DNA of 63,228 nt, the filler included, from Dugesia japonica (taxonomy: Eukaryota): NCBI GenBank assembly GCA_001938525.1. It is 6 parts of 6 records of this genome, joined end to end, with 100 filler letters (N's around TTAATTAATTAA, not from the genome) between each part and the next. Parts side by side here need not be neighbours in the genome. Positions count along the whole stretch, not along the records: positions 11,233 to 19,856 come from MQRL01476269.1; 5 more parts are not named here. One strand, given 5' to 3'. Shown here piece after piece: positions 3,291 through 61,450 of this stretch; within the stretch, counting starts at the first letter, position 1; each line of letters opens with the position of its first letter. The notes beneath the pieces are model-generated. The model had not been told where the DNA came from, did no database searches, and saw nothing but the letters and a program-made list of their open reading frames with translations. The position numbers were made by a program, and so were the translations under genes.

Positions 3291-3599
3291 GGGAAGTTTT
3301 AAAATTGACATCATGTTAGGTAATAATTCGAAATGGGATTAAGTGGCCCTAAACTTTCCTGTGTATTTAGTAGGAAAAGTTTTTTGCTCACAAATTATGT
3401 CATTAAATTAATTTCATCGGTGAAATATTACGTAATAGGACTAAGTGGTTATGTATTTTTCTGTGGTTTTGGTTGGGAAAATGTTTAAGCTTATTAGGCG
3501 GCAAAGTGGCTCGGTATTTTCCTGTGTATTTAGTTGGGAAATTCTTTAGGCTTTTAAAGTAGTGGAATTTTTTTCAGGCTTTTTAGTTGGAATTTATTC

Positions 3600-4340
3600 G
3601 ATGAGGTTGAATTAGGTCAATTTTCGATTGGTTTTAGATAGGTTTTGGTCGATAATTTTCTCGGTGAGTTTGCATCTTGGCAAACTGGTCGGTTTGGGTT
3701 TATTTGGTCAAATATTTTCTCTGGAATGGTTAATTTAGGTAATTCTTTGGCGATTCGGTCAAATATTTCCGCCAAATTGGTTATTGTGATCAATTTTTCG
3801 ATTAATTGGCCGAAATTTTACTCGGGATAGGTAAATTTTGGATGACTTGGTTCAATATTTCCTCGGGTTTATGCAATTTGGATCAGTTTTGGACAATTTA
3901 GTCAATTATTTACTCAGTTTAGGTAATATTGGTCAATTATTTACTCGGTATGGACAAACTTGATTAATTATTGGCTCACAAAGATAATGTTTAGGTGATT
4001 TTGGTCAATTATTTCCTTAGTAATGGTCTGTTTGGATAGTTTTTGGACAATTTGGTAAGTTATTTACTCAGTAAGGACAAATTTGGTTAATTATTTGCTC
4101 ACAAGGGTGATGTTTAAGTGAATTTGGTCAATTATTTCCTCAAAAATGGTTAATTTGGGTCAGTTTTGGAAACTTTGGTCAATTATTTACCCGGTTTACG
4201 TCATATTTATCGATGTTTTCTAACATAAGTCCGTTTTCGGTCAGTTTTGGATGATTAAGTTAATTAATTCCTCACAATAATAAGTCTTAGGAGAATTTGA
4301 ATGATAATTTTCTCAGGCTGGACAGTTTTGGTTGAAATTT
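3600..4340. repeat. Degenerate minisatellite, ~20/40-bp period (core TTTGGTCAATTATTTACTC)
   Basis: GGTCAATTATTT-like units recur roughly every 20-40 bp, with strong G/T strand skew. Confidence 0.8.
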
Positions 4341-7650: not shown

Positions 7651-10600
7651 AATAAATTATTAATTAAAATAAATTTTTTGCTCTAGAAATACTTATGATA
7701 AGCAAACAAATTTGATATCGTTGAACTCAGAATAAAAAACTGAACATATTTCATATAGACTTTAGATTATAAAAATCCTTCGTTCAAGCAATAATATATA
7801 ATTAATTATAAATTATAATTATAGTCAAAATAATAATTCATTTAAAATAAAAGCTTCGATCAAAATGTTTTGTTTTTTTTATTGATATTTGATAAAAATT
7901 CAATGAAATAAGAGTTAAAAATTTTGAAACTATTTACACAGAAAAAACTAAAAATAGTAAAATTATATTGAAAACATGATAGTAACAATAACAAGCAAAA
8001 CTCAAAATTTTAAATTTTCAAATATTTTTTTAAAAATATTAATAATAAAAGTATAGTGAAATACAAAATAAAAATATTATTTAAATTATAAAATTTATGT
8101 CAAAATAAATTTTCTTTTTTAAGCATCTTTTGATTCATTATATTAACAATTATTTTAAATTAATGCTATTGGTGAATCTATTTTACTAATAAAATCAGAA
8201 TCATAAAATTTTGAAACATTAAAATAATTCAATTTATATTTAAATAATACTAAAAACCTACAAATAAGCTAATGATAAGATTTATTTCAAATCATATTGG
8301 TCTGGATTCTATTAGCAGTCTAAAAATAATACAATAATTTACTTTAATTGACTGATTCGATCACGTATTGTGATAAAATATTACATGTTACATAATGTGT
8401 GTTGTTCATTGGCTTTACTGTGTCTACTTATTTACTCTAACACATAAGGATTTAAATGAAACACATGGGATTACTGTGGTTTTCTATACATATTAGTTTG
8501 CTATATCCACCTATTTATTGTATATACTGGCTTTCTGTATCCATTAATATATTGTGTAAATACAATTGCTAAACTCTGAAATTTATAAAACTTAGAGAAA
8601 TTAAGAAAAATAATGGAAATTTATGAACAAATTTAACAAGTTTTAATAAAATTGGTATACATTAACTCATTGTTTTCCATTATTTTACTATAACCACTAG
8701 TCTACTGTCTAAATACAACCACTGAACACTATGAAACAAATCCAACAAAGTACACCTAATGAAAACTATAAATAAAAACCTATTATATTCGATAAATTTT
8801 TGTGAAATTAAAGCGATTTAGGGAAATTTTNGAAATTTAAATAACTTTTGTAAAATTAATTAATTTTCATTAGCTTAAGACACTTAAGGCAATTAATGGA
8901 AATTTAAAAAATCTTAATAAAATTAATTTATATTTCAATCACCGGTCTATACATTTTAATGAAATTGCTTTTTGACTTAGTATATATTTATTAATATTTT
9001 ATTAACATTTATAGAAATTTTTTAAAATCAAGTTATTCAAATATCATTTAGACTTGAAAAATTTCAAACTTATGTCTCAATTTACAATAGATAGTGACAA
9101 TTTGCACATATTTGGTTACAATTTGCTTATTTGTGACTAATATTTATTAATAGTAGTTATAATTTAGTTATAACTTGTAATAAGTGATGATAATTTGCTT
9201 AAAGATGACTATAATTTGTGCATAGTATCAGTAAATTACACATCAATAGTTGTATTTCGTACATAAGTGGTTACAATTTGTACATAAGTGGTAATAATTT
9301 CTTTTTAGGCGACTACAATATATTCATGGGTTAATGAAGTTAGTGTATAGATGATTGGATTTGATGTATGTTTACTTTATAAATTAGTAATAAGTCAAAT
9401 AATTTACTTAAATAACCTGATTTGATCGGGTACTATATGGGGTATTCATTGACTTTACTATATTACACTGGTTTTATTCAATCCTATTGGCTTTATCGTG
9501 TTCTACTCTATCACATTGGGTTTTTGTACTAATCTGCTAACTTTATCCATTACGTTGATTGTATCTCATTGGCTTCATTCTAACACATTGGTTTATTATA
9601 CTATTTTATTAACTGTATCCATTACCTTTTTTGTGTTGATTGATTAATAGATAAAGCGGCTGTATTTATATGACTGAATAACTATATAAATTGATTAACG
9701 GTGTCATTAGTTTTAAGATGAAATGGATTGTCAAGATAGACTATAAAATTCTGTTAACCCTTAGTTAACATTAGAATCAGTTTAGTGTTTATTTTAATGA
9801 AAATTGTAACTATTGCTTATAGATTTCTGTCTAATGGAACAAATTAGTCATATTCAATGGATTAAGGGACTGTATTAATTAACTTGATTGATTAGATTAA
9901 GATAAATGTAAAATAATATGTAAGTCAAATACATAAATGAATTAAATGTATAGATTTAATAAATGTATCGGATACATTAAATGTAGTANGTTTATTGACT
10001 GTGTTGGGTTAATAATTTGTATTGATCCAGAATGTATACAAGTGCTGTCACATTTTCCTTTGTAAAAATTGAAGAATTATTGAAGAAGATTTGACTTGTA
10101 AATATGAATAACAAATTTTGGAAATTTGAAAAGGTCACATTCATTGCAAACAATGAATTTAAATAAGACATATTTAAGATTTTAACACAATTAATTAATA
10201 ACTTAAATTAAAATTAATTAAATACGTGTATCTATAGTAGGCTTATTTCTGAAATATGACTAAATAACATTCAAGTTTTAAGTACTTTATTTTCAAGAAT
10301 GGATGACTTGTATCCATCAAACCAATATGTGTAGAAACTTTTATTAATCCAAAGGAAGACAAATGCATGATCACAAAGAAAATAAATAGAATATAAAATA
10401 TTTTATCAACGTATAACAATTCAGGACTTCTGTGAAATTTTGAATAATTTTCACATACTTCTTGGTAATTTTGGATGGATTTCTATGACTTCTGTGAATT
10501 TTTAATATACTTCCATAACTACTCTGAAATTTGGTATCAATTTCGAACATTTCTCAGAAATATTTTAATTATTTTCCTAATGTTTTACATAGTTTTTGAG

Positions 10601-11410: not shown

Positions 11411-12533
11411 TCATATATAAACGACATCATCTGGCCGATTGTGACAGTATTGAATGCGTCTATTAGCGTACTGAACATTCAATCTGTCCCCACTGATTGG
11501 CAAGAAAGGCACCTCACCCGTGTTGAGGAAGCGTTCCGAACCCAGGCTATTCAAATGAGGTATTTGTTTCCAAATGTATTCAATCATCTTTTCGAGACGC
11601 TCCAGATCGTTGTCGGTCGGCGGGTAGAACTGCTGCATCACGTTGCACCACAGAGTGTCGGCCAACAGATAATCGGATTGCCGCAAAAGCGCTTCGTCGA
11701 AACTTGCCATTAAATAGATCATTTCTCCATAGAAATATTGTAACATTTTCTTAGATATTCGACCACTCAACTTTTTCGCCCGTTTCTCGATGTCTTTGTA
11801 TGCAATCTGAAATAATCAAACAGAAATCCGTTTAAAGAAAGACTTGAAAAAATATTTATTCATTAAAATGCATCCAAAAAATTTTCTAAAAATTCCAAGA
11901 GTGGAAAAATTTTTGATAAATCTAAGAAACTCACAAAATTCATTCAATTTGAAACTTTTTTTATAAGAAAAAAATTTTAATAAAACGAAAATTCTAGATA
12001 AACTTCCTATTGTAATTCTAAGATTTCAATAATTTCTAGATTTCTATTATTTCAATTGATTTAAATTTATCAATAGATTTAATTATTTATCAATTCCTTA
12101 ATTATTTTACATTTAGCATTAAAAAACTGGTTCATTACATTCATCATCTTGAATTTTCCTATTTTTCCCTCTACTCCTTCATGCTCAAGTCTCAATGCTA
12201 GTAGCCAAAAATGAATACACATCATATTAAACCACGTTTGAAATGTATCTGGTAGATTAAAATTATGTATAAATGAATTGATATCCGGATACTCTAAATA
12301 TGAATAAAATTAATAATTCGCAAAAATATAATACCGGCAGCAACTGCATATAACTTACAACCAGTAATTTCAATGTCGCGTTCTGAATATCTTAGTTTTA
12401 TAGATCCTGAAATGAGTTGCAAACGTTCCGAATAAGACAATGGTCCTTTATGTAACTGGAAATGAATGTTTTTAACAGAACTGATAAAAACTCGTTCATA
12501 TTTACAAATTTTTAAAAACGCATTTCTGAGCAT
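11411..12533 (-). CDS. UQCC1: Ubiquinol-cytochrome c reductase complex assembly factor 1 (CBP3 homologue); exons 12533-12335, 12293-12139, 11806-11411; ~249 aa
   Basis: Spliced frame is continuous with GT-AG introns of 41 and 332 nt. Contains LPDTFQTWFNMMCIHFWLLALRL and ASFDEALL...LADTLW, matching remembered CBP3/UQCC1 motifs. Basic N-terminus resembles a mitochondrial transit peptide. Confidence 0.9.
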
Positions 12534-13074
12534 TTTAAAAATAAGAATTTACAAATAAATAAGATTTGATGGATTTAAAGGCAGCTTAAATTTAATTATT
12601 CAAAAAATGAAACTCTAATTTAAATTAAGCAAAATATTGTTGATGTGAAAAGTATTAAACTTCACATAATTTTTATCTTTCTAAATTTCTAATTTACTTT
12701 TTAACCATATTTCATTTAGTTTCTTTTTTAATTCAGCATTTTAACTTTCAAAAATTTCATAAAAAATATAAAAATAATTACTTTAAATTTATTTTAATTC
12801 TTTGATTTTTTTACCCATTAATTTTGAAATTATTTTTTTGATTCATAAAATTCACGACTTTAAAAAATCAATTCAATATTTTCAATGATTTTCGACGTAC
12901 AATAAGTGAATTTGACTAAACACCACTTTTTAGTAACCTCACAAATAGGTTCAATGATTCATCAAATATTTTAAGTATTGGCAATTAATTTTTTTATCGA
13001 AAGCTCACTATATCAAGTAAATATCATTTCGGGATTTTATGAAAGATAAATATTGACATATTATCAAAATATTT

Positions 13075-13315
13075 TTACAATTGCAATTATTGCGAGAATA
13101 ATTGTTGGACATAATCATTGATCGTTTTTCAGAATTCATTTAAAGTAAAAGCTTCGATCAAAAAAATTTTTTTATAGTTTTTTTGAAATTAGTTCGATAT
13201 TTCGACTTTGTCTTCGTCAAGAATTGAACAAAAAGTCAATTCCTGACGAAGACAAAGTCGAAAAATCGAATCAATATCAAAAAAAATTTTTTGATCCAAG
13301 CTTTTATTTTAAATA
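13075..13315. mobile_element. Palindromic dispersed repeat with a minimal hammerhead ribozyme core on each strand (Penelope pLTR-derived, non-autonomous)
   Basis: Inverted arms TTCGACTTTGTCTTCGTCAAGAATTGA / TCAATTCCTGACGAAGACAAAGTCGAA. Related copies at ~39130-39385, 42880-42975 and 61360-61450; core-less copies at 51536-51665 and 62446-62535. Confidence 0.8.
13238..13271 (+). ncRNA. Minimal type I hammerhead ribozyme motif
   Basis: AUUC-CUGACGA(13243-13249)-A-GAC AAA GUC-GAAA-AA-UC-GAAU: conserved core, 3-bp stem II, stem I AUUC/GAAU, predicted cleavage after C13267. Confidence 0.7.
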
Positions 13316-14725
13316 TATCAAAATTCAAATGTTTAAACCACTTAAAATATAACCATTTATTTAGGAATATTGTTATTGGAATTCTTATTATATCTTCTTT
13401 TCATTTATGGGCTTACTTATCAATTTTCTCTTAACTGTATGTTTTCGGGTGTTCTACCCTAACAGAAATATTTTAGAAAATTACTACTGTAGTGGAATAG
13501 TCAAAATAAAACTTTAAATGGAATAAAATTGATGATAAGGTGGGAATCCAGAATAAAATACGAAAAAATAATTAAGAATCATATGAAAAATAATAGCAGA
13601 ATTTGTAAATGAATTTTGAAATGAAAAAATAATAAAATTATTAAAGTTATGTTTAGAAAGAATGCTGCAATTATCTAATTAATAGTTAAGTAGTTTGAAA
13701 AATGAGAAATAATACAGATATGAATGTACAAACTGTTGGGATGCTTTGGGGATTGTTGCCAAAGCAAATAACCAATTGCAGGAGTTTAATAGTCTCTTTT
13801 AATATGTCCTTAAACAATCCGAATCAGATATATTATACTTGTATGTTTTCCTTATTCCACCTTAAGATCGTTAATATATATGAAAAATATGAATATAAAT
13901 ACACTATATAGTCAACTATTTAAATAATGACAAATTTACTTTTAAAAATTTTATTAACTCAAAGTTATACACTTAAGATTAAAAATATACGTTTGTATTT
14001 TGATCTCGGAAGTGTTGATTCGGTAAACCTTAACTTCACTTGAGATATAAAATTTTTAGGGTTATTAGCCACTGAAAACTAAAACTATGTATACAAAATT
14101 TTAGCTGCCACCCACGATAACAAAACACTGAATAATGTTAATTACAAATAAAATTTAATAGAAAAGATTTTTATAATTACTAAAATTAATAAAATTTTCT
14201 AGAAAAATTTCTTTTTTTTAGTAAATCTGTATGCAAGTTAAATAAAATCCGCACAATATGGATTGATAGAAAATGAAATTATATTAAATAAAATCATCAC
14301 AGTGTTATTAAAATGAAATGAAATATTGATTACTGAACTAAATTAACAATATACAGATAAAATCAAGAATTAGTCAATTGACAATATACATAAAAAACTA
14401 AAAATGGGATTACTAAAAATAAAAACGAAAATATTTTGCACATGATAAATAATAGAATAATGTTTTATAAATAAATTTCACATATAATAATGTTAAGCGA
14501 TAAAATGTCTATTTTATAGTGGAATATTTGATTCTTCATTGGGAGTTTCTGATTTTGGGTTGGATTGATTGGAAGTTTCTGGTTATGTATATAAATTTGT
14601 AGTTGCTGTTTGTTTGTGTATGCATATTTTGGATGTTTAGCTTTACTTGCAGGTGATGTGATGCTTTGCATATGATGGTTTTTATGCGATGTTTCTCAAC
14701 AAAACAGTAAAATTTTAAAGATGTA

Positions 14726-14938: not shown

Positions 14939-17900
14939 TGGTGACTAACGCTTCAAAGGACCTCATTCGAGAAGCACTACACACTATAATTTACCGGCAT
15001 GGTGACTACATTGAACAGTTCATTAATGGTTGCACCAAATACTTTGAATGTATTGGTGTAAAGAAAAATTATAAAAACCTCTTGGTGGTTGGCATAATTG
15101 ATCGATAATTAAGAGAAGCATATGAATGCCAAGATGAATTATTAGATTTTGAGGACCGACTGGAGAAAGCGTTCGACAAAAAGAATATTATCATACAAGA
15201 CTTGGAGGAAGCTTTAAAATACAAGAGAACGGTGAACAAGTTTATGTGTACAAGAAAAAGATTTTAACACTGATCGGTAAAATCTTTGCACACAAACTAG
15301 ACAAAGAAGAGATGACTAGAGAATTCATATTCAATAGTTGACGCGATAAAAGGATACAAATAAAGATTAAATGAGGCAAATTAGCCAACTCGGAAGAAAA
15401 ATTTGAAACAATAAAAACAAATGATGAACTAAAAAAGGACCTGAAAGAAACACACAATTTAAATACGGTGAAGAGTTACAGCAATGCAGTAAAAGAAGCA
15501 TAATAAAAGAACGTTTCTCAGGAGTTAATTGAACTCAAAGTGAAGCTAAAAAGAAATTAAATTTTGGTCATGTCAGAAGATAGGTCATATCAGTAGAAAT
15601 TGTCCGGAAAAGAAAAGAATGTGTTACGCATGCGGATCAGAGAATCATATAAGAATAAAGATGTGGCAAAAATGGACATCATACAGAACAATGTTATACT
15701 AATTTGGAGAAAAAAGGTGTGTTGACTAATGATAGAAGACAGCAGAATAACGAACAAAGAAACGAAGCAGCACTATACAGCCGAAGAGAAGAAACAAACA
15801 GAAGATATGTCGATAATTACAGATTCACAAAACAAAGTGGGAGTACATCAGCCAATAATGGATTCAGGAAAAGAGATGGCAATATATATGAAAACGCAAT
15901 GGTAGAGTAAGATGAGTACATAAAGAGAGGAGATAATATTTGCTATTACGGCAAGGAGACAAAAAGTTATAGAGAAGATACCCCAAACAGACATGTTCCA
16001 TCCAAAGTCGAGATAATTGGAGCAATGAACTGAAAAACAATCTAGATTGCGATATATATGTATAGTAAAAGTAGTTTAATTAATAGTATAAAAGATGAAA
16101 CTAAAGAGGAAAGAGTAGACAGAAAAGTTTATGCGTTTTTAAAGAAAGATTACAGAGATATGTATAATACAGATATCAAGATAATGAAAGAAACGAGAAA
16201 TGATGATAACAGAATAATGGTATTAGAAGAGAATGAACAAGAACAAATAAATTATGACAGAATGCAAGGTAGACCCAGTGAAGAAGTTAGAATTGAAGGA
16301 AGATATATACACTGCCTTTTGGACACAGGTGCAAAGATAAGCGAGATGAGCCTAAATATATTTAGAAGCCTGACAGATGTGGAGCTTATAAGAACTGATG
16401 ACGTGTTAAAATGTGCAAATAATAGCAGAATGAACATTTCGGGCAAGCTATATGTAGAAGTGGATATCGAAAACAGTAAGAAAACTGTGCAATTCATTGT
16501 AGTAAAAGAAATGAGTCCGAATCTTGTTGGAGAAATAGAGATGCAACGCCAGTTTAGATACCGTTTAAAGAACGAAACAAATGATTATGAGGATGAATAG
16601 TGGATCTGTAACATAGACGCAAAATTTGGTCGGATAATTGAGGATGTTTAAAGAGAACAGAGAGCTTCAAGAATTTTGATGACAAAACAAGACGATAAAC
16701 TGGAAAAGGTAATAGAACAACATCGAGAAGTATTCATGGCAGATAACTGGAATGTCGAATGTACAATGGTGTCAGAACACAAGGCAGTGTCAAAGGGTTA
16801 TCCAATAAATACGAAGATTTGGAGACAATCCATAAATCCAGAAGAAAAACTAGATACGCCCATAAAAATTTAGCAGACGCTTATATTATAAGAAAATGTA
16901 ATTCGTAATGGAATACATCACTGATATGCGTCTGGAAGAAAGAAAGAAAGGATGTGAGAATTTGCTTGGACTTGAGGAAACTGAACGCAGTTAAGGAACG
17001 ACAGGTTTTCCCAATAACAAACGTGGCAGAAATGTAATATAATTTGTATGGGGTTAAATATTTCAGTACGATAGACTTAGGAAACGCTTATTACCAGGTA
17101 CCGTTAGACAAAGATTCACAAGAAAAAACAGTTTTTTCGACAAAAAATGGTCAACATTGCTTCACAAGAATGCCATTCGGTATAACAGCAACCCCATGAA
17201 CATTTTAAGAACTAATGACAAAAGTATTGGACGGTCTAGATGGAGCAATCGTGTATATGGATATCACAATGGCATTCTCAGAAAGACTAAAATAGCATTA
17301 TATAACTCTAAGTCAGGTATTAGAGCAGATCTAAAAGGCAGGGCTTTGAGTAAATCCAGAAAATGTCACCTATTACGCAAAGAAGTAAANTTTCTTGTCC
17401 ACATAATAGATAAAGAAGGAATTCGAACAGATCCAATAAAAATTGAAGCAATCAAGAATTTTGAGAAACCCATATGTGCAAAGAGCCTGAGAAGCTTCCT
17501 CGGAATATGCAATTATTACAAGAGATTCATCAAGAATTATTTAAAGAAACCAACTGCCCTAGAAGAATTATAAGGAAGCAACAGCATGAAGCTAATATGG
17601 TCAGATGGATGTGAGAAAGCTTTCACAGAAATGAAACAAGCACTGATAGAAGCACCTCTTCTAGGATTCCCGGATATAAATAAAACATTTATTTTAGATA
17701 CTGACGCCAGCTTCGGCGCAATAGGTGCGGTCCTAACACAAAATGATGAAGATGGAAGAGTAAGAGTTATTGCTTACGGCTCACATGTAATGACATCGCA
17801 TAAGAAGGGCTACTGTATCATACGGAAGAAATTACTAGCAATCTACTACTTCTGCAACCACTTTAAGCATTATTTATATGAAAAAGAATTCATCACCAGA

Positions 17901-19225
17901 ACAGATCACAAAGCCATCGTATTCATGAAAAAAACGAGCTAACCGATAACACCTAAGTTCCAGACATGGATGTATTACATTAGCATCTTAGACATGGAAC
18001 TAATATATTGATAAGGTGAGAAACACACAAACGAAGATATGCTCTCAAGAATGAAATGTGGAAGATGCACTCAATGTCAAATGCAAGATGAAGAGCCAAA
18101 GATTGGGAAGATGAAAACAAGACAGATAAATCAGATGGTAAAGATAGAGAGATGTAAATGGCAGGAGGGAATAAAGGAAATCAATCTAATCAAACGAGAT
18201 ATTCAAGAAGGAAAGAATTCAAAGTATAGAGTCGAAANTAATATAGTGAAAACAAGTGATGGGAAAATTTGGATTCCAAAAGAGAAAAGAATACCAATAA
18301 TCAAATAGATACATGCATTGTTAATACATGCAGGGACATAGAAAATGATCAGCCATATAATCAGCAACTACGACACGGAAGAACTGGAGAAGACAATCAC
18401 AGAAGTGATAAGACAGTGTGAAGCGTGCCAAAAGAAGAAAGTTAATACGGTGGCAACAAAAAGAGACGACAGTAAAATTAAGCGCAAATTGTCCATTTGA
18501 AAAGATATATTTTTATGGTCATTTGTAGGCCCTTTCTAGATACTGTGAACAGACGAAGATATATATGTGGAATAATAGACCAATACAGTCGATATGTAAG
18601 CCTAACGGCAATCAGCGTGCAAGATGATTAGACAATTAAAAAAGTGATAATGGAAAAATGGATCCTGAGATTTTGAGCACCAAGAGAAGTTCACGTGGAC
18701 AGTGGTAAAGCATTTAAATCGAAAAATCCAAGAATCTGATGGAATCGATGAATATAAAAGTACATTTTTCAAGTCCGTACCATTACAATACAAACGAAAT
18801 TATAAAGAGGCAGTTCTGCACAATTAGAGACTGTATTAACGCAGCCGCAGAGGAAGATGGAAGAAAGGATTGGAGTAACAGGATACCGGAGATAAAGTAT
18901 ATGATGAATGGAACAAGGCAAAAGACATTGGGGATATCACCAGCAGAATTAATATTTGATAGGAAAATTCATGGAGAACAATGATTCGACAGCCAAAGAG
19001 ATGACAAAGAGTAGATGGGTGAAACACCTACAAAAAGACAATTCTAAGTAGGAGACGAAGTATTGATAAAACTAGAAACTAGGACAAAAGACAATGAAAG
19101 ATATGCTGGCTCATATAAGATCACGGAGAAAGTCCATGAGAGAAGATATCGTATATGAAATGCAAATGAAAAAGTGCTACAAAAGAGCTTAGAAAAGCTT
19201 AAAAGATTATTTTAATCGAGGGGGA

Positions 19226-21849: not shown

Positions 21850-22325
21850 TAGTAGCGCATTGGAACAACCCGCACAAAGTGTTTTGAAAATTTGAGCATT
21901 TTGATTGGTCGTTATGATTGCGTAATCAAATCGAAATTAAGGAATAAACTTACTGATTTAGATTTTACTTCCAATAATAATTCCAAATTTCAAATAATCA
22001 AATACGCTATTGGAGAAATAATGGCTTCTGAAAAAAAAGTTAATTTAAGCTATTATTATTACCATGTAAAAACCTTTTATCCGAGTTGTTTGATGTTGGA
22101 AAATACATATTAGTATTAGATTTTCNTTTTTATTCAAATTTTTTCTTCAAATTAATTAAAATATCTACAAAAAATAATAAATATACAGAAAAATATTAAC
22201 CAGGGTCTTACTAAATTGCTTTGTTACTTTATTTAAATGTTTTAACCGTAGTAGCGCATTGGAACAACCCCCAGGAAATGTTTTGAAAATTTGAGCATTT
22301 TAATTGGTCGTTACGATTGCGTAAA
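21850..22325 (+). repeat. Two direct copies (~21850-21925 and ~22249-22325) of a ~75-bp repeat beginning TAGTAGCGCATTGGAACAACCC
   Basis: Near-identical blocks ...GTTTTGAAAATTTGAGCATTTT(G/A)ATTGGTCGTTA(T/C)GATTGCGTAA. Confidence 0.85.
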
Positions 22326-22719
22326 CAATTTTTCTAATTTAATTTGTCGAATTTTAGCTCGGAAAGGTCGAAATTTCGAATTTTTGTTTTGAATTGTTTC
22401 GGTCAAATTTTATGGTATTATTTCAAATTTGTTGTCGTTGAACTCCGAATTAAAAACTGTAAAGGAATATAATATCACTTTTCGAAAAATTGTTCGTTCT
22501 CGCTGGAAAGGACTTGAGAGCATTAGANNNNNNNNNNNNNNNNNNNNNNNNNNNNNNNNNNNNNNNNNNNNNNNNNNNNNNNNNNNNNACGATTTGCTCC
22601 TTATAAAATCAAACTGTCTTTACTAATTGCATATGATACAATTTCCTTGGTTCTTACTGGAACAACTACATTCTGCTTATCAAGTCCTATTTGATGTCCT
22701 GTTGGTACCAATTATTCAA

Positions 22720-24355: not shown

Positions 24356-25310
24356 CACATCTAGTTGTTCGCACGCTAGACACTATAGTAAAATGATTAA
24401 GCTTGGATTGACCCGAGTAATTTATTTTCTTTTTCTAAATTTGTACTTTTATTTATTTCTGGTTTACATCTTTTTTGTGGATTAGTTATGATTTCAGCTA
24501 TTATCTTTTCAGCTACCTTTTTGCGTAATTTTTTATGGCTTGCGTTTTTCCAGTTTCTGATTTCTTCATTGCAGTTTGGTCGTTTTAATTTACCTTTTTT
24601 CTTCGAATTTATTAAGTATTTTTGATAATTTATTCTTGACTTTCTTAAATTCATTCAATTATTCACTTCATTAATTTCTTCGATTTTAAGTTTTAAACTT
24701 GTTGAACCAAGTTTAAGATTTACACAATAAGCTAATATTTAGTTTAAACTAACTGTTATCTGTCATGCGTCACTGACTAAAAATTCTTTGAGCAAAATTC
24801 AAAGAAATTAACCATCATCATCTAAAAACAGGTTGTGCGATTGATTATGATGTATCCTGTTACCACATGGTAACTTTTCTCTTTACGAAAGTAATTTGTT
24901 TAAATGGTTTTTGCTGAGCCATTTAAAATCAATTGACTTTTCTGACTGTTAATATAGGTAGAATAATTTAAAAGATTTATAATTATACGAATTGCAGACA
25001 ATACTTAAATAACATCAACACTAAATCATAATTAACTTAAAACACAAATAGTTCGTAAGCATATTATATATTAAAAGTTTTATACAATTGATTAACTCAT
25101 TATGTCATAACAGTGAATTACATCATTTAAATTAATAAAGTAATAACATTTTTGTTAAAAAATCAAATTTAGTATGAAAGTAAATTTTAGTTTATATATT
25201 CTTTTAATTATAAACCTTTGTTTTAAAGTATAAAATAATAATCTCTGTAAAAGTCGATATTTCTATTTAATTTATTTTTCTTAATAATTATTGAAAGTTT
25301 CTTGTAATCT

Positions 25311-26255
25311 ATGGTGTGTTCTACTGAAGTTTACCAATGGTTTAAAGAATTGTCTCCTTTTAATCGAATTGATTTTTTATGTAGTATTATGCAACTTTGT
25401 TTACCTAACGAATTGCGATTTATTGGAACACTTTTGGATGATATGAATAATAAGGATTATGCGAATCTACGTGAAGCAGAAGATCGATCAAATAGTCCTA
25501 ACGAATTTAGACAATATCCTACAATGCCTCTCAATGAAGAAGGTGTTCGTAGATTATGCCTTAGTCTTTCATTATTAAAATCAACTAATCAAAAAGTTGG
25601 ACAAATTATTTATGAGATTTTAAAAATCCATTTTACTTATGCAAATGAATGTGTAAAATTGAAAGACAAATTTAGTAATGAGGTATTATTACTTTATGCT
25701 TTAGCAAGCTATCATCCGGCATTTACGTTTGAAAATCGATTTAAAATTGGTGAACAATTTAAAATTTTGCAATCAATTTACGAAGATTCTACTGAAGAAT
25801 TTTCTAACAATAATAATTCGTGTTGTTATAAAGATATCAACAAAAATAGTTTTTTAAATATTAACATAAAAAGTGTTATACTTGAACATCTTGATGCTAA
25901 TATAATATTAGAAATATCATCTGATAACCCCCAGAATTCTAATATAGAAAAAGTGACGACATTTTCTAAAATAATCGAATTATTTAAAGAAATTAAATAT
26001 TTTCATTCTGATTTATTTTCTACTTTGCACTTGGAAATTAGTGATATAACTAAAAATGGAAATTTTAACACTAATAACATTCGATGTATTTGTCAAAAAA
26101 TCATTAAGTTTTTAAACTCAAATAGTGATGAGGATAATCAATTTATCAAAAAATTTTTCCTGCAGTTGCCAGTTTATCATAAAAAAACCAATTCTAATAG
26201 TTCGCAAGTTGAAAGTATGTTATTTAATCGAATTAATATGTTGCACTATTTTTGA
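25311..26255 (+). CDS. ZCCHC14: ZCCHC14/ZCCHC2-like (GLS-1 family) protein, N-terminal exon; probable donor at 26215
   Basis: EVYQWFKELSPFNRIDFLCSIMQLCLPNELRFIGTLLDD...KDYANLREAE and LASYHPAFTFE match the conserved N-terminal region of ZCCHC14/ZCCHC2. AA|GTATGT donor just before the stop. Downstream exons not identified. Confidence 0.8.
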   Translation: MVCSTEVYQWFKELSPFNRIDFLCSIMQLCLPNELRFIGTLLDDMNNKDYANLREAEDRSNSPNEFRQYPTMPLNEEGVRRLCLSLSLLKSTNQKVGQIIYEILKIHFTYANECVKLKDKFSNEVLLLYALASYHPAFTFENRFKIGEQFKILQSIYEDSTEEFSNNNNSCCYKDINKNSFLNINIKSVILEHLDANIILEISSDNPQNSNIEKVTTFSKIIELFKEIKYFHSDLFSTLHLEISDITKNGNFNTNNIRCICQKIIKFLNSNSDEDNQFIKKFFLQLPVYHKKTNSNSSQVESMLFNRINMLHYF

Positions 26256-26652: not shown

Positions 26653-26896
26653 TAGAGTTGCACAACCTTTTTAGGCCAAGGGCCAAATTGAGCATTAGTA
26701 GTTTCTTGTCACCCATCTCTGTATTATTTATAGGTATTTGCTTATTTGGAATTAGCCATATGGATGAGTATCTAAAGCAGTAATACATGATTTCTATATC
26801 GAACAGTTTTTTGAGGTGTTACAATTTTCCCGAGGGCTGGTAAAAACACTTTGGCATGCCAAATCCGGCTTGCAGGCCGCGGGTTGTGCACCCCTG
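26653..26896. mobile_element. hAT (Buster/Charlie-type) MITE
   Basis: Imperfect TIRs TAGAGTTGCACAACC / GGTTGTGCACCCCTG. Flanked by 8-bp TA-centred near-duplications TTATAGGT / ATATAGGC. Confidence 0.75.
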
Positions 26897-27758
26897 ATAT
26901 AGGCTATACCGGAAATTATATTATTTCATGTGTGATGACGAGGGTTATCTTGTATCTCGTACAATATTGGTCCCGCTAAGTTTTGAAAATATGATTACAT
27001 GTTGAGAAATCGAGAAATGTTACGGAATCCACACATTCATTGGGCTCAAATAGTTCATAGTAATTGTGACAACAGTAATAATATCAGAAATTTAAAAAAT
27101 AACGTGTTTTTTTTTGGGGTATAGCCTATACATTCAAATTCTATTTATCTAATTAGATAGAATACTATATCTGTTGGCATATGATTTATTTTGATATATT
27201 ATAGTTATCATTCTAATTTTTATTTAGTTGAATTATAAATGGTTGAATAAAACTTTGAAAAATAACAATATTAGTAAAGTGTAATCANNNNNNNNNNNNN
27301 NNNNNNNNNNNNNNNNNNNNNNNNNNNNNNNNNNNNNATCCGGCTTGCAGGCCGCGGGTTGTGCACCCCTGATATAGGCTATACCGGAAATTATATTATT
27401 TCATGTGTGATTACGAGGGTTATCTTGTATCTCGTACAATATTGGTTCCGCTAAGTTTTGAAAATATGATTACACGTTGAGAAATCGAGAAATGTTACGG
27501 AATCCACACATTCATTGCGCTCAAATAGTTCATAGTAATTGTGAGAACAGTAATAATATCAGAAATTTAAAAAATAACGTGTTTTTTGGGTATAGCCTAT
27601 ACATTCAAATTCTATTTATCTAATTAGATAGAATACTATATCTGTTGGCATATGCTTTATTTTGATATATTATAGTTATCATTTTAATTTTTATTTAGTT
27701 GAATTATAAATGGTTGAATAAAACTTTGAAAAATAACAATATTAGTAAAGTGTAATCA
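26863..27758 (+). repeat. Near-identical ~420-bp duplication on either side of an N gap (26863-27287 vs 27338-27758)
   Basis: Only a few substitutions or indels, and the copies abut the gap. Probably unmerged haplotype or contig overlap. Confidence 0.85.
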
Positions 27759-30652: not shown

Positions 30653-30812
30653 TTACTGAGCATAATAAGAGTTATTGCTGTCAGGGTTCAGAAAATCTAG
30701 TGAGTAAGACGCGATACCACAAAGTCGCACTGAACCCGTGGAAAAGAGGGCTATGTCACAGAGGTGAGACAAAGGCTTATGGTTTTTAGGTATGCCCCTA
30801 GATTGGTCGATG
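30653..30812 (+). other. Conserved structured non-coding module, copy 1
   Basis: Inverted paralogue of 32388-32547. Contains GGGTTCAG/CTGAACCC, GCGA/TCGC and TCAC-AGAG-GTGA stems. Confidence 0.75.
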
Positions 30813-30905
30813 AAATTTTAAATAGGCAAATGAAACTGGAAAGAGAAGAGAATAANNNNNNNNNNNNNNNNNNNNNNNNNNNNNNNNNNNNNNNNNNNNN
30901 NNNNN

Positions 30906-30975: not shown

Positions 30976-32387
30976 TATTTATATATGTTTTACAATTTAA
31001 TTAAATTTTTTATTCAATTAAATTTTGTGGAGCTTGATTATTTAACTTGGATAAATTTTTGAAAAATGGCAAAATAAGTATTGAGTTTATTATCAAATAT
31101 TTTAATCATATCAATCATATTAATTAATTACTATTACTAAAAAAATTTTACCAATTAATTTGAAATATTAAATGTATACTTTCAATTAAATCAGCAAAAT
31201 TACTAAAATTATCATTTTTATTCGAATATTAAATTTTTGTTTAAATTAACGTCAATGTCTTTGTAACATTTATTATGTAAACATTTCAATCTAATCATTA
31301 AGATGGATATATTCCTTATATATTTTTTAATACTTTATCATATAAACAAAATTAATCCCTAACCCATAAAACTATAATAAATTTAAATAATGAAAGCATA
31401 ATTTCTTAATGAAACTATTCATTAAATTGTAAATTAAATATATTGTTTGATTTTTTTCAAATAAATGTATTTAATAGTCTGTTTCAATTTAAATAAAATT
31501 TTATAATTAAAGATGAGAATATTATTTTTTTCCTATTAATTATCAGCATTTCCCCTGATTTTGATATTTAATAAATTTTAGTGTGAACGGCTCAAGTTGA
31601 CCGTGAGCAATTCTATCTGGTTTACATTGTAAAATGAAAGGAAATCTTCGTTAATGTATTACAATATTTTTTGTTTCAAACAAAAATTCAACTGTTAACT
31701 TGATCACGTTAAATTTTTTCCTTTCAACACAATGTTGGGTTTCATATTTCTACAACATGCTACGGGAAACGGTCAATGTGTTTGCTAAATTTTGCCATTT
31801 CAATTGATGCTCAATTGAAATTATTACCGGAAACACTGCTGGTCAAATTGGGTGTTTTTTTTTCTCGTTTAAATAAAGGTTACTTTAGAGATAGAAAATT
31901 CCCGTGAACTTTAACATGTACAATTTTTTTTAAATATTTCATGTTTAATTTTGATTCATTAATAATTACATAAATGGAATACTTTTCTTTTTTTTATTAT
32001 GTACAATATAAAATAAAGAAAGAAATGATTTTTTGAAATAATATTGAAATATATTGGTTTGTTAAAATTTTTTTTTATCTATTTGAAATTTTAATTACTT
32101 AAATTTTGCTATTATTCAAAATGTTTAAATTGGATTATTTCGAATTAAAATGATTTTAAAAGAAGTGAAATAATAATTATAAAAAACTCGAAATTGACAG
32201 TGTGATTATTAAATTACCTGAATAATAGCTATATAAACTAGAAGTGTTATAAAAAGAAATTTATAAAAAATAACATTTATTTAAAATAACATAAATTATA
32301 TATATGTTGGGTTTTTAGGATTTGATGTTTTAAATTTTATCTACAAATTTTCTGATAACACTTTTAATAATTAATAATTAATAAATC

Positions 32388-32547
32388 CATCGATGTATCT
32401 AGGGGCATACCTAAAAACCACAAGTATTTATGTCACCTCTGTGACATGCCCCTCTCTTACCACGGGTTCAGCGCGACTTTGCGGTATCGCGTCTTACTCA
32501 TTGGAATTCTGAACTCAGACAGCAATAACTCTCACATGCTCAGTAAT
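32388..32547 (-). other. Conserved structured non-coding module, copy 2
   Basis: The minus strand has GAGTTCAG...CTGAACCC, CGCGA...TCGCG, and AGGGGCAT...ATGCCCCT enclosing a TGTCAC-AGAG-GTGACA hairpin. Confidence 0.75.
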
Positions 32548-32952: not shown

Positions 32953-33229
32953 CTGAAATATTAAAGTCAATTATAATTATCACAACAAAATTCAAGGTTA
33001 TATACATAAATTTGATTTAAAATCATTCTAAATATGGTATCTTAATATTGTATTTAAATATTGTATTTAAATAAAAATCAACTGAATTACGATATTGCTT
33101 CTGCAATCCCCCAAGACAAATAGTTCAAAATTGTGACATACATATCACTTCACGCCTCAACCCAACGAACTAAAATTTAATTATTATAAATTACATTGAT
33201 ATAATGTTTATCTTTTTTTAATTAATAAT

Positions 33230-34620
33230 TGTTCATGTTTCTTCCAGTGAGGTGTGGAAATGTACCCTGTTGCTAGTGTTTTCATGTTATATGATGTTGC
33301 TCTGATGAAATTTTATGTTTGTATGTTGAAAATGTTTTAACACTGAACTTTCTTTTTTCTTGAGATTTCCTTAATTCTAGTTTGAATGGTTCTGCATGTT
33401 TCTTTACAAATGGTTCATGTTATTTTATAAGTGATATTTTGCTTATGGCATATATTTCTATGATAATAAATACATTTGGGACTACAAAAGCCTTGTTGTG
33501 GTTTCTGCAATTAGATGACCAACAGTTTTTGTTTTGAATATTATCATTGGATCGTGCTTGAGTTTAGAATTTTTTTTATTTTGCATAGTTTGGCTACATT
33601 TCTCATTGATAAAAGATAATTTAATTACTTTGTTTGTTTTAAGTTTGATTTTATTAAATTTTCTATTGGAAGATAAATATTTTGATATAATTTTATTTGG
33701 AAATTTGTTATTTAAGAATTGATTTTTATTAACTTCAGAAAAATCAATTTCATTTCTTCATTTGAAGATAATTTCTCAGCTCTTATTCTTTTACCAATTT
33801 TTTGCGGGAAGATAGTATTATTACTCCAAGGTAATACATGTCCACTGTGAAATCGTTTCATATATAATTGAAATATTTTGGATTTAAGTATCAAGAAAAT
33901 GAATCTAAAAGTCATTTGACTCCTCTAAAGTTAATTGCATATTATTGGCTAATTCAAAAATGTTCTCTAAAGGCGAATTAATAACAAAGAAAATATCGTC
34001 TATGTATCTAAATTTTCTTGTTTGCTTTAAGAATCATTGAATTTTCAATAAAATTCATGAAAATTATCATTAGAATTGGAAATAAATTGTTACCCATTGC
34101 AAGACCACCTTTTTGTTCAAAAGTTTGTTAATCGATAAAAGTGCTATCAGAGAAGAGACACAAATTAATAAGACATTTGAAATCATTTTTAATGATCTCC
34201 TGAATATCTGTATGTTCTTTATATCTTTCATTTTCAGGTACTTAAATGGGAATTGATCCATATCGATTTGTTACATCTACTAATTCATCATCACTCTTCC
34301 AGTTATAATTTTTGATTCGTTTGATAAATTCGTAGCTATTCTTTCAATGTGCCGGAAAGAAACTTAATAGTGATTTTAATATATCTATCATGAGTTGAAA
34401 TAATACAGTTGAAAGAGTTTCGGAAGTATTGACAATAGATTTTCCTTTGAATGGTTTAGGAAAATAGTACATTTTACTGTTAAAAGTAAAGATTTTATTG
34501 GGTCTTCATATTTTTCCTCTATTTGAATTAATAGTTTATTAAATTTAATTTCATCTATAGTTGGTAGTCGTTTGTGTGCTGTTGTTTCATAATTGAAAAG
34601 CATATATAGAAAAGCATTAG
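33230..34620 (-). mobile_element. Decayed Penelope-like retroelement (RT and possible C-terminal nuclease region)
   Basis: Minus-strand GLAMG (~34095), RYIDDI (~34000) and a PLE-like thumb segment FL(D)LKSKIFQLYMKRFHSGHVLPWS. Heavily disrupted; boundaries approximate. Confidence 0.7.
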
Positions 34621-34789: not shown

Positions 34790-37700
34790 CTACTTAACAT
34801 ATCAGAATTACTATGAAGAACACCTTTCTGATATTCTAAAATTATGTCTAAACTACTTAAAAAGTTTATCCACGTCTGAAACTATGCAGTGATTGCCTCT
34901 TTTTATTCAACATAAATGTAATAGCTTTAAAATCTGGCCTTAAAACAAATCTTCTACCATACAAATAATGATTAAAATGAATGCAAAAATAACAGCACTA
35001 CCAGCAGTAGTGCAATAACCCCTCTCGTATTCGAAATCGAATGCGAACCGTAGGCAATCACCATTTCCTTTCCATCCTTACCTAGCTGTGCTCCACTGCT
35101 CCAATTGGGTCGAAACTTGAGTCCGTTCATGATAAATTCTTTCTCCAAATCTGGGAAACCTAAAATTGGCGTAGATGTTAAAGCCATCTTGAGTCCTTCA
35201 AAGATTTCTGTCAATTCTTCTGACAATATTAATTTTGTGTTTCCTGATCAACTGCAAAACTGCTCCAATTTTCTAGCCTTCTCCATATATTCTTTGATAA
35301 ACTTCCTGTAGTAGTTGCAAATGCCTAAAAAAACTACGGAGTCTCTTAACACACTAAGGTTTTTCAAACGACTTAATCACTTCTATCTTAGCTGGATCCG
35401 TCTTAATAATATGTCCTCTGATAATATGTTCTAAATGTTTTATCTCTTTTTGTAAGAAAAACATTTTTCTGAAATTATTCACAAACCCGTTTAAAAAATC
35501 TTTGTCAATATCTTTTTAATCATTTGATAATGTACCTTCTTATTCTTTGAAAATATCAATATATCGTCAATACTCCTTCTAGTCCTCCAATTACTTTCAC
35601 CATCATTTCTTGAATCGTCCCTAGAGCTGCCGCTATGCCAAAAGGCACCCTATTAAAGCAATATTGACTTTACTTTTTGAAAAAGCTGTGTTTTTACAAT
35701 GTGACTCTGTCTCTAATTCTACTTAGTAATACCCAAGTCAATTGAACTAAAATAAGCTCCTCAATCCAGAGTATCTAACATTTCTTCAATATTTGGCATA
35801 TGAAATGCTTGCCGTTATATTATCGCATTCAACCTCCTGAAGTCTAAACACAATCTTATATTCTTTATATTCTTCTTCCAAATACAAACTAATGAAGTGT
35901 TCCATGGCAAATTGCATTTTCTAATGATAACGTTCTCAAACAAATTTCTGATGGCCTCATCAACTTTTCCTTCCATATTCATAGGCTGTCTATATGGTTT
36001 CATATTAATTGGACCACCTTTCATCACGATTCTATGCTTAACCACATACATTTTCCCTACATCCCACTAATTCGGCATAAATACAGTCACTTTGTTCCTG
36101 TATATCTCTTCCAACCACATATTCCCACTCCAATTTATACTGTTATATACTTTTTCAGACATTTGCTTTCACTAACCTGCCTGCCAAAATTTGCCTCTAA
36201 ATTACGAATATAGTTTATTCCTTCACTTCCTATTTGGATATGTTCTTTTTAAATCAAATAAAACCCAAAAGTATCTAAAAATTCCATTCCTCCTATCGTA
36301 CTTGGAGAAACTCGACTCACCACTACAAAAGTTACCCACTTGGTCTTATCACCTAACTCAACTTCTAACTTTGCCCTCAGCTGTTTCCAACTCACTGTCA
36401 TTCACGCAATGCAATTTTACCACACACTCCTCTAACTGCTTAATTCCTAATTTTTTTCAACAGTCTAAATTTACATTTATTCTTGCACCAGTATCAAGAA
36501 GACACTTCTTCCTCTTTCCATTTATTTGTACACTCAATGGTTGCTCATTTTCTTCCAAAGCATTTATTGAATCCGAAATCACTTACTTCTTGAACGACTT
36601 TCCTCTCATAAATCTAAAAGCTTTCTCACCTATCATTTACACATCTTCCAAACTTTCCACCTCCTGAAGATATTATGTAGAACTGTCCTTTAATATATGG
36701 CTCCAACTAGCTCCTCTACTGTGGAAGCCCTCTCTTTTGGGTAAAATTTCTTTTTTCCAAACTTTTTAAGTCCTCCTCTTCATTCTGACTTATTTCTTCC
36801 TCCAGTGCATTCAATAGTCTATATCTATTATCTCGAGTCCTCCATCTAAAAATGTCTCTCATCTGATCTTCGATTAACATGATGAGTTCTATCGAGTGCT
36901 ATATCATAATTTCCTTTATTTTCGTATCTGCTCATACATTTCTTTCACTCCCGACTAATATGACCCCTTCGCCTTCACCGAAAATATTGTACCTGCTGTC
37001 TCACTGGACAGTTTCTACTGACATGTCCTTCTAATATAGATGTCAAATATTTTATTGCCCGTCTTTAAGGACAATCCCACTTTATATGACCTACTCTATT
37101 GCATTCCCAACCCACCCCAACAGACCACATTAGCGAAATTTTGCACCACATTAACTGAACCCTCCCTGTTCTCTACTTTATCTAATAATCTCATGGTTTC
37201 CTTAATATCTTCCACGTTTTCCACTTTGCGTAATAGAATTTTTTCTCTTTTAATCCCTGAACTTTGCTGGAAATTTTTATCGCGAAAATTCTTTTTTGAA
37301 AACAAATTGCTTGCTACTTCCTCTACCTTATTCATATAAATTTCAATATCTTCATTATCACATCTATATTCTAAAGCATTTTGGATATCTTTTAAAACAC
37401 TCCGCTTCTTATCAAATTCTAATCTTAGGCGATCCTGAAAACCATATACTTTTTTAAAAGTTTTAATATATTTTCCAATAATAACTTCATCAATCAAACA
37501 AATAACTAACCTTCCTGGCTCCTTCTTATTTAAGATACCCTTTACTTCAAAGTATATCTCACATTTTTTAATAAACTTTTCGAAGTCATCATTTCACCGA
37601 AAAATGTCTGGTAGCATCCTATTTGTAAGAGCATCGGTGTTAATCCCTACCACCATGTTAGGAGTAATATCAACAACAGCATTATTATTCGTTTCTAAAA

Positions 37701-37870: not shown

Positions 37871-39129
37871 TAACTAAATGATTACTAAAAATGGACAAAA
37901 TGTAATTTTAATTTAATTTTAAGTAAATTTTTAATTGAAATATAAGAACATTACTATATAAATGAATTAAAAGATGTCTAAAGGTTCTATTTTTAATTGT
38001 CAGAATATGGTTAAGGTTCCATTAAATTTGACAAAAAAATCTGATAAATGATGACTAAAATGTGTTATATGTCTGATGAAAGATGAAAAGACTTGTCTTA
38101 TATATTCTAATTAATTAATTAAATCAAAATAAAGGCGCAATCATCGATAATTATTTCTATTAATGTGCGATTTACAGTTGTACTAAGAATACCGTATTAT
38201 CAACTAACGCGCGCAATAATCGTGTGAATGCAATCAGTAATCGCCCACCAATGGCTGCCCAAGATCTGATTATGCTAGCATACAGGATTAATTCTTTATT
38301 GCGGGCATAAGACTCGATCATTCGCCGTGTATATCAGTTATTCATCGCATATGCACATATAGACATAATTAATTCAATGAAGGTAAACTATATGCTTGAT
38401 TGATTGAACGAGAACCCATATGACAGAATGTTTGTAATATGCACAATCGCTGCAGCGAAAATGTGGAAGGTTCACTTTTATTAAGTAAATTAATTATTTC
38501 AAAAAATTCTATTAATTAATTATAAAAAAAATTAATAAGTAATTAAATAAAAATTAAGTCAAAATTCAAATTTAAAAATTGTGCCAAATTCAAAACAAAC
38601 AATTTAATTAATTTTTTTTCTTATACAGGTAATATGAAAGATGAAAACCCGAACTAAAGGAATACGATCATGTACACAAACTACGGGTTGCGAGTCACTG
38701 GCTCTATTCCAAAGATCTAGCTCAAGGACACTAGATTTAATTCTTTTTAGGATTTTACTAAGTCATCTTACCCTATGAAATCCAATAAAATTGAGCTGCC
38801 TAAAAGGAACCCCAACAAATTTAAAATTTTTTCCACTGGTAATTTGTACTACATAAGGATAAACTAAAAATGACTAATTTATTTTTCAGGTTGTTTGTGT
38901 CAGTAGTTATATGTTTGTTCTATTTGTTTATTATTTTTAATTCTGTCCTCAAAAGAATAAATTTGTCAAAAATAAAAACATTTCGCAAATTTATATTTTG
39001 ATTCATATCTGTAACAAATTTACAGAAATGAAGAAGCAACAAAAATTATCTTTATTATTAAATTCAAAAATATTTTTTATTTAGAAATAAAATTAAAGTG
39101 CACTATTAAAGACTATAAAAATTTTTTAC

Positions 39130-39385
39130 AATTAGAATTATTGTGAGAATAATTGTTGGACTTAACAATTGATCGTATTTGAGATTTCATTAAATTAAAA
39201 GCTTCGATCAAAATATTGATTTTCTTTTATTATATTTCGAATTTTCGACTTCGCATTCGTCAGAAATTTACTTTTTTAAAAGTCAATTCCTGACGAGGAC
39301 AAAGTCAAAAATTCGAAATATTATTATGAACTATAAAACAATATAGAAAAAAGAAAATGATGAAAGCTTTTAATTTAATGAAATT
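39130..39385. mobile_element. Second full copy of the palindromic hammerhead repeat
   Basis: Same left segment (ACAATT...GAGAATAATTGTTGGAC...AAGCTTCGATCAAAA) and inverted arms. CTGACGA at 39290-39296 (+) and at ~39257-39263 (-). Confidence 0.8.
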
Positions 39386-41995: not shown

Positions 41996-42879
41996 CAGCG
42001 CATTGTGATTCAACGAGTGCCTTAATATTTTGCAAGTGTCATCCGTGAATTTTTACATTAAAGAAATAATGATTTAGGGCTCCAATTCTCATTACGATGT
42101 CCGCTCTCTTGTTACAAACGTTAAGACTAATTCGTAAAGAAAGACACAGAGCCCGTAATAAGCAGTTATTGGCTCACATTTTATCCGGTGGTAAGATCTA
42201 ACATCCCGATGAAACCGACCTCCAATGTTTTGTCGACATGTTCCCCTTGAATATTTCCTTGGACATGGATGCCGAAAACTAATTATAACCATTCTCCAGT
42301 GTGTCGTTTTATGTTAAATAAATTATAATCCCGTAAAATGTTGTTAAAATTTTTGTTAGGTGTATTCTATATTTCTGCCACATTATAATTTTAATTTGAG
42401 TATGATAAATATATTTTTTAGTGGAATACAATTGGAAAGTCGTATTAGATCAGAGAACTGGGCACACCGTTTTTAAACGTTATCGTAACCTTCATAGCAG
42501 AGATGCCGGGGTACTTATCGATAGGTCAAACTTGAACGGGTCTCCTTAAACACCAAAATTTACTCAATTAAGCAGATAAGCAATTGTTTTGATTTGAGCC
42601 CAGTAAATATAGCATACACATACATCATGAGCAACAGAATCCAGTAAATATAACAAGCATGCACCACAAANNNNNNNNNNNNNNNNNNNNNNNNNNNNNN
42701 NNNNNNNNNNNNNNNNNNNNNNNNNNNNNNNNNNNNNNNNNNNNNNNNNNNNNNNNNNNNNNNNNNNNNNNNNNNNNNATTAGTCGACAGTGATTTTATC
42801 GATTATTTAAAGTATTATAAACATTATTCTATCAACTGTATAAATAAACATTATTATTATTCATTTAAAATAAAAATTT

Positions 42880-42975
42880 GGAAATTCAATATTTCGACTT
42901 TGTCTTGGTCAGGAATTAACTTTTTTAAAAAAACTCAAAAAAAAAATTTTCTGATCGAAGCTGTTATTATAAATG
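42880..42975 (-). repeat. Partial copy of the hammerhead repeat
   Basis: Minus strand AAUUC-CUGACCA-AGACAAAGUC-GAAAUAUU-GAAUU (core G8 changed to C). Confidence 0.7.
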
Positions 42976-43122
42976 AATCAAATTTATTATTGAAATAAAT
43001 TAAATTTATGAGTTTGCCTGCAAATTTTGCATTAAAAAAAAAGAAAAAAAATCAATATTTTAAAAAAATTAATGAAAAAAAAACGAAATAAATTCTACAT
43101 TTATATTTTCAAAAATATCATT

Positions 43123-61359: not shown

Positions 61360-61450
61360 AAGTCAATTCCTGACAAAGACAAAGTCGAATTATAAAATTA
61401 ATCGCCAAAAACAAAAAAACAAAAATTTTGATAGAAGCTTTTATTTTAAA
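61360..61450 (+). repeat. Partial copy of the hammerhead repeat
   Basis: AGTCAATTCCTGACAAAGACAAAGTCGAA...TTTTGATAGAAGCTTTTATTTTAAA; core degenerate. Confidence 0.7.

Follow-up and report, generated by a model that had tools for sequence, protein, structure and literature searches.

Penelope-like elements (PLEs) that carry an endonuclease (EN+) are the closest described counterparts of the repeat reported here. In the available text of PMC8557442, PLE insertions consist of an inverted, 5'-truncated copy and a one-sided tail of 30-40 bp. The accessible part of PMC3846280, on Pen2a of Adineta vaga, describes a pseudo-LTR (pLTR) plus tail that encodes the first 22 amino acids, as well as 8-10-bp duplications, solo pLTRs, and mobilisation in trans; the commonest inverted form is head-to-head and is ascribed to self-priming. 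Minimal hammerhead ribozymes have been described in PLE pseudo-LTRs, and the portion of PMC4209133 available to us gives them an extra base before stem II, a G10.1-C11.1 pair, a short stem I, and a palindromic stem III. They are mostly single and dispersed, with some pairs on opposite strands 100-700 bp apart, and are inactive as monomers with low activity as dimers; the supplement includes motifs from a rotifer and from a Schmidtea PLE. Dimer cleavage of small hammerhead variants is credited to Lunse et al. 2016 in the accessible text of the review PMC6765202. In the Anolis Poseidon element PAc (PMC11167929), both strands are cut and extended, and reverse transcription starts from two internal sites that delimit the tail and lie in an AC-rich stem-loop. 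The PAc RNA must extend past these start sites, and its ribozyme is protein-assisted and dispensable for insertion. Retrozymes, as presented in the available parts of PMC7229834 and bioRxiv 10.64898/2026.07.22.740005, are tandem repeats of 150-400 bp with mostly canonical ribozymes and circular RNAs.

The window, i.e., the whole 63,228-nt stretch of Dugesia japonica DNA analysed, is AT-rich (~26% G+C) and made up of six pieces with an N-flanked linker between pieces. A sequence-only reading had described a ~240-bp element with an inverted repeat at its centre and named seven loci. The inverted repeat was confirmed at 13073-13315, and BLASTN and nhmmer searches over the window recovered all seven loci, which comprise 11 arm segments and occupy 981 of the 61,707 non-N bases. 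With a profile built from eight arms, these 11 segments scored between 16 and 134 bits, followed by two at 7 bits; the best score in 10 shuffled windows was 9.8 bits, and no further arm copy in the window rose above that background. The copies, described earlier as lying on different contigs, are spread over five of the six pieces, but three of them (51536, 61360, and 62446) share one piece. At the first locus, the parts of the element are:

13135-13227, minus strand: left (inverted) arm, nearly full length at this locus
13230-13315, plus strand: right arm with fixed 5' end at 13230, hammerhead, and A-rich spacer; stops at the ATG position and is tail-less
13074-13139, minus strand: tail, made of an ATG and an open frame of 22 codons; at 13073-13074 it reaches the fixed outer end that tailed arms share
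13083-13105: 9-bp stem-loop in the tail, AC-rich on the sense (minus) strand, ~10 nt before the outer end

The remaining copies are:

39124-39389: second copy with two arms, each of full length, and a left-hand tail; neither hammerhead intact
42860-42978: two-armed copy, core-bearing arm on the minus strand with an internal deletion, partner on the plus strand 5'-truncated
51535-51666: two-armed copy, both arms 5'-truncated and without a core, left tail
61357-61457, plus strand: single full-length arm, tail-less, with a damaged core and no palindrome
62444-62537, minus strand: single arm with tail, 5'-truncated
7835-7876, minus strand: single arm without tail, 5'-truncated

Of the seven window copies, two are two-armed and full, two are two-armed and truncated, and three are solo arms. 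At least four copies (13075, 39130, 42880, and 61360) had been called core-bearing, and the motif is present in each, but a core on both strands occurs only at 13075 and 39130: the 42880 copy has one core arm and a truncated partner, and 61360 is a single arm.

The repeating unit is a one-way unit of ~160 nt and not the 240-bp palindrome. From the centre outward, it begins with an A-run; the hammerhead follows 13 nt on, and then come an A-rich spacer, a 30-nt conserved block, the ATG, and, in some arms, ~60 nt more. The palindrome is two such units placed head to head, with the tail on one only; at the 13075 locus, ~60 nt (13074-13134) have no mirror partner. Tail-less arms terminate within a few bases of the ATG. 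An open frame of 22 codons runs from the ATG in all four window tails. The leader of a coding PLE would be expected to end in this way, and the earlier description of the family as protein-free and non-autonomous is one of two possible readings. By itself the open frame weighs little, since 13-18% of shuffled tails are also open and the 17 variable columns split 4/6/7 over the codon positions, with no excess at third positions. Among the window tails and stem III, two or more sequence variants were present. The predicted fold of the stem-loop at 13083-13105 and its analogy to the one in PMC11167929 make it a candidate reverse-transcription start signal.

Contig records from two DNA runs (X1 and X4) were placed on 12900-13500 at 80% likeness. 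In total, 31,833 of 8.8 million records (X1) and 32,551 of 10.2 million records (X4) were placed, and these ~32,000 records per run support the high abundance proposed earlier. Summed depth was ~11 in the unique flank and 1.3-3.8 million over the core and tail, which is not a copy number. To the right of the element, a second, low-copy repeat (13383-13487) reached a summed depth of up to ~700, compared to 11 in unique DNA. Among the best 24 of 930 entries, loose ends of contigs were found at 13073 (615 and 645 records in the two runs) and at 13230 (362 and 375 records). The flanks beyond these loose ends disagreed with one another (agreement of 0.44-0.47, and 0.44-0.45 at 13230). Of the best-supported 15 of 196 joints, 13 linked 10 points of the left arm (13093-13173) to 13230-13232, and the other two were strand switches. 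The 5' end of one arm is therefore fixed, and the inverted arm is shortened at many points. Later deletion, or a library artefact in the hairpin, may account for some joints. The palindrome had been taken as the unit that spreads, and this was not supported, as the inner junction differs between insertions.

Direct repeats in the flanks were found in two of the four two-armed copies. At the 13075 copy, these are:

13062-13070, plus strand: candidate 9-bp target-site duplication, left copy
13316-13324, plus strand: candidate target-site duplication, right copy

Nine or more matches arise in 0.3% of random 20-nt flank pairs. The 42880 copy has a candidate 8-bp duplication of low complexity (1.2% of random pairs), and the other two copies have none above chance.

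The layout matches one already known in PLEs of other animals, namely an inverted pLTR followed by a pLTR and a tail. As far as the accessible texts of PMC3846280 and PMC8557442 go, the EN+ PLE insertion unit shares with the repeat the head-to-head inverted copy, the variable 5' truncation, and the one-sided tail; PMC3846280 adds a pLTR of ~200 bp that, with the tail, holds the first 22 codons, and an 8-10-bp duplication comparable to the candidate ones at two copies here. Unlike the insertion units in those texts, the repeat has no ORF body between its repeats, its tail is ~60 nt rather than 30-40, its tail-less end coincides with the ATG instead of falling 12 codons further in, and its copy number is far higher. 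The comparison with PAc (PMC11167929) is similarly mixed. Two fixed 3' ends bound the tail in both, with an AC-rich stem-loop at the end; targets are AT-rich, and RNA reads do not stop at the ribozyme site. However, the PAc ORF starts inside the ribozyme and its start sites are at +111 to +118, whereas the repeat has its ATG ~70 nt after the ribozyme and ends near +5 and +66.

A strict minimal-hammerhead descriptor had one match in the window (13243, plus strand), and any match was found in only one of 20 shuffled windows. The earlier proposal of a minimal hammerhead is thus supported: the match contains the CUGANGA and GAAA boxes, the extra base, G10.1-C11.1, a UH cut site, and a short stem I. 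In the two arms of this locus, the motifs are:

13238-13272, plus strand: minimal type I hammerhead with intact core, an extra A before a 3-bp stem II, and a predicted cut after C13267
13193-13225, minus strand: left-arm minimal hammerhead with C3U and a palindromic stem III, AUAU

A hammerhead on both strands held up as a sequence motif in each arm, but only one of the six core-bearing arms (13243, plus strand) retains both core boxes and stem II. Damage in the other core arms comprised C3U (13220, minus strand), G12A (39290, plus strand), a broken stem II (39263, minus strand), G8C (42912, minus strand), and G8A with a damaged second box (61370, plus strand). Two intact cores do not occur together at any window locus. 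In these six arms, 87.5% of stem cells were paired, compared to at most 42% when slid, and no compensatory pair change was seen in the stems. An Rfam scan of the window gave no hammerhead model at E 5. Two miRNA-hairpin models matched weakly in Rfam, far below the gathering score, and were read as hairpin shape only.

Judged from sequence, variation across the family at the ribozyme fits hammerhead rules. The C3U of the left arm at 13075 is private, and 79% of family depth has the intact base. Within 13243-13263, the only change among the 40 listed of 106 variants was G13260A (6%, X1). Either C or A (the latter in 31%) occupies the cut position, and C>T at 13272, found in 60% of family depth, extends stem I to five pairs. 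At the stem III positions 13264 and 13265, T made up 88% and 13% of the depth, respectively (X1). From these frequencies and four window arms we infer that the two positions are linked, such that stem III in the family reads AUAU or AAUU, both palindromic. The letters AUAU occur in the left arms of 13075 and 42880 and AAUU in both 39130 arms, as would allow a dimer; the intact right arm at 13075 has AAAU, which is non-palindromic. The boxes, the extra base, G10.1-C11.1, a stem I of 4-6 bp, and the palindromic stem III are all shared with the minimal PLE hammerheads in the available text of PMC4209133. The rotifer motif of its supplement has the same four stem I pairs as the repeat, and the Schmidtea PLE motif listed there differs in sequence. 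Stem II is 3 bp with a 3-nt loop here, in contrast to the 7-8 bp reported for schistosome motifs.

Each strand of the palindrome has one sense hammerhead with its own antisense copy upstream. Because the arms diverge, a read-through RNA of either strand reaches the antisense arm before the sense one. For the complete element, a single hairpin of −88 kcal/mol was predicted, compared to −48 with the ribozyme stems forced. Forcing the ribozyme fold would therefore cost about 40 kcal/mol in the palindrome and ~2 in the arm alone. At such a cost, cleavage of the palindrome on either strand is predicted not to occur, and the hairpin is predicted to block rather than double self-cutting. The sequence-only reading had inferred that the element could cleave itself from transcripts of either strand; the fold cost and the lack of a locus with two intact cores speak against this, and the ribozyme on both strands is predicted to be a by-product that is inactive in palindrome form.

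Two RNA runs gave reads on the family, from both strands: 82 in X21, of which ~6% was read, and 2,455 in X22, of which ~25% was read. Of these reads, 93-94% continued into unlike flanks, and the flanks of the 13075 locus had no depth. The family RNA reads are read-through of embedded copies. No piled-up RNA ends were seen on the family in the two libraries, which are fragmented and would not reveal a cut.

A PLE origin of the repeat, as proposed earlier, is very probable, and is supported by the unit layout, the fixed ends, the variable inner junction, and the minimal hammerhead. We favour the reading, as the probable one, that the ~160-nt unit is the leader (pseudo-LTR plus tail) of an endonuclease-bearing PLE, with the palindrome rebuilt at each insertion and the copies being dead-end stubs. 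In such a process, the Penelope protein would nick both strands of AT-rich DNA ~9 bp apart, and each nick would prime reverse transcription inside the RNA, one at ~+66 and the other at ~+4 to +7 from the ATG. Two such priming sites would leave a tail on one side only. Each copy would then extend toward the 5' end of the linear RNA at 13230, 13 nt before the ribozyme core, and halt there or earlier, after which the two cDNAs would join head to head. Most products would be dead-end stubs that later decay. The ribozyme, if active at all, may act as a dimer or with protein assistance in the parent RNA and not in the palindromes. RNA of a single unit would give the leader only, so that no separate parasite would be needed to account for many copies that lack an ORF.

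This reading of the copies as leader stubs draws on the two fixed outer ends, the fixed inner 5' end at 13230, the variable joints, and the presence of solo, truncated, and two-armed forms side by side. It is further supported by the candidate 9- and 8-bp duplications, by the AAUU variant shared by both 39130 arms, and by the agreement of family variation at the ribozyme with hammerhead rules. Against it, the ~60-nt tail is longer than the 30-40 bp in print, and two of the four two-armed copies are without a clear duplication. A protein search with the tail peptide and 21 flank codons, for a parent ORF continuing from the tail, was a weak one with one candidate and none that scored; the loose ends beyond either boundary had no dominant continuation among the best 24 of 930 entries. 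Consequently, coding copies would at best be a small minority.

A less likely account, though one we consider possible, is that the ~160-nt unit propagates itself as a non-autonomous mini-Penelope, a SINE-like passenger whose solo copies are transcribed and re-copied in trans by Penelope protein, the palindrome still being formed at insertion. In its favour are the fixed ends of the unit, its very high abundance, the lack of a dominant continuation up- or downstream among the best 24 of 930 entries, and the sequence variants among tails and stem III, as is the mobilisation of pLTRs in trans, possible according to the accessible part of PMC3846280. However, the RNA for insertion needs ~55-60 nt past the start sites, which would be absent from such stubs; this length comes from one PLE in vitro (PMC11167929), and its transfer to the repeat is by inference. 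The RNA reads are likewise read-through without piled ends, and the ATG and open frame are retained in all four tails. A bolder form of the account is improbable: an ORF-less mini-Penelope of ~160 nt in many thousands of copies would be the smallest ribozyme-headed retroposon, its 3-bp-stem-II hammerhead with AUAU/AAUU being kept because RNAs of separate copies dimerise and cleave in trans. In that case, twin internal priming by a Penelope enzyme would have left its footprint across the genome in the three fixed ends, two outer and one inner.

It is very unlikely that the repeat is a non-LTR retrozyme, in which tandem arrays give rise to ribozyme-cut circular RNA and then to dispersed copies. 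Like the metazoan non-LTR retrozymes of the available texts (PMC7229834; bioRxiv 10.64898/2026.07.22.740005), the repeat is short, apparently protein-free, likely PLE-dependent, and equipped with a type I hammerhead; the A-runs at both unit ends could be one run in a circle, and the latter source, as far as accessible, derives retrozymes from PLE pLTRs. Unlike them, the copies here are dispersed singles and head-to-head pairs. No head-to-tail pair was present among the 11 window segments, no tail-end-to-head joint among the best-supported 15 of 196, and the unit ends lie away from the predicted cut of a ribozyme that is minimal and not canonical. The tandem retrozyme was rejected on the absence of head-to-tail repeats in both sets.

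Least probable of all is a fold-back DNA transposon (a MITE or Helentron-type element) that picked up a hammerhead-like sequence and is mobile as an unchanging palindrome: the long inverted repeat, terminal hairpin, AT-rich targets, and candidate 8-9-bp duplications would suit it, but the ends are asymmetric (60-nt overhang), solo arms have sharp ends, and a variable inner junction faces a fixed 5' end of the other arm. Duplications of 8-9 bp occur in some DNA transposons. A MITE was largely refuted, with no symmetric terminal inverted repeats and no fixed internal structure shared by the copies.

On present evidence, the repeat is a commonplace by-product of a retrotransposon class already known. 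It also offers a large natural data set, with thousands of short insertions that have fixed outer ends and variable inner joints. These could test the origin of the inverted Penelope repeat, i.e., priming from both cut strands (in vitro, one element) versus fold-back self-priming (rotifer genomes), and could also test selection on minimal hammerheads during amplification. The literature searched contained no description of the repeat family, which may nevertheless already be on record, for example in Repbase or in published figures. Exact-pattern scans for the core and for the tail gave zero matches in metagenome contigs and zero in viral contigs.

Other elements were seen in the window. The plus strand at 55400-57250 has what we take, by eye from known motifs, to be a decayed PLE-like element, with a reverse transcriptase (YVDD), a thumb, and a GIY-YIG-like end. 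Pfam gave it only a weak match to an Eco29kI GIY-YIG-type domain (E 0.012), and a protein search with a fragment of this relic (55.4-57.2 kb) gave no match. The relic carries a separate minimal hammerhead, with a 5-bp stem II and a decayed stem I, at 57207-57232; this lies ~400 bp beyond the nuclease part and is directly followed by a perfect 18-bp palindrome. The relic belongs to a different family from the repeat, having a different ribozyme, a different end, and no similarity to the unit. A second PLE-like reverse transcriptase/nuclease relic, more decayed, was noted by eye at 33150-34300 (minus strand); no hammerhead was found beside it, and it had no BLAST match to the relic at 55400-57250.

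Inverted repeats of 82 bp (30742-30823 and 32377-32458), 82% complementary, 1.55 kb apart, and richer in G+C than the background, form a candidate DNA-transposon remnant. Broken pieces of LTR retrotransposons, with integrase, protease, and RT/RNase H-like frames, were found at 1343-2326, 16046-18308, and 34972-37600. Host exons were recognised for a ubiquinol-cytochrome c chaperone (11411-11815, minus strand), a Vts1/ZCCHC-like protein (25308-26255, plus strand), and C2H2 zinc fingers (43652-44829, minus strand); a protein search with a host gene fragment returned no match. Degenerate short tandem-like repeats occupy 3341-4300, including a 123-bp period at 3918-4163. Near-identical direct duplications flank N gaps at 26863-27758 (98%) and 21850-22328 (91%) and are probably assembly overlaps.
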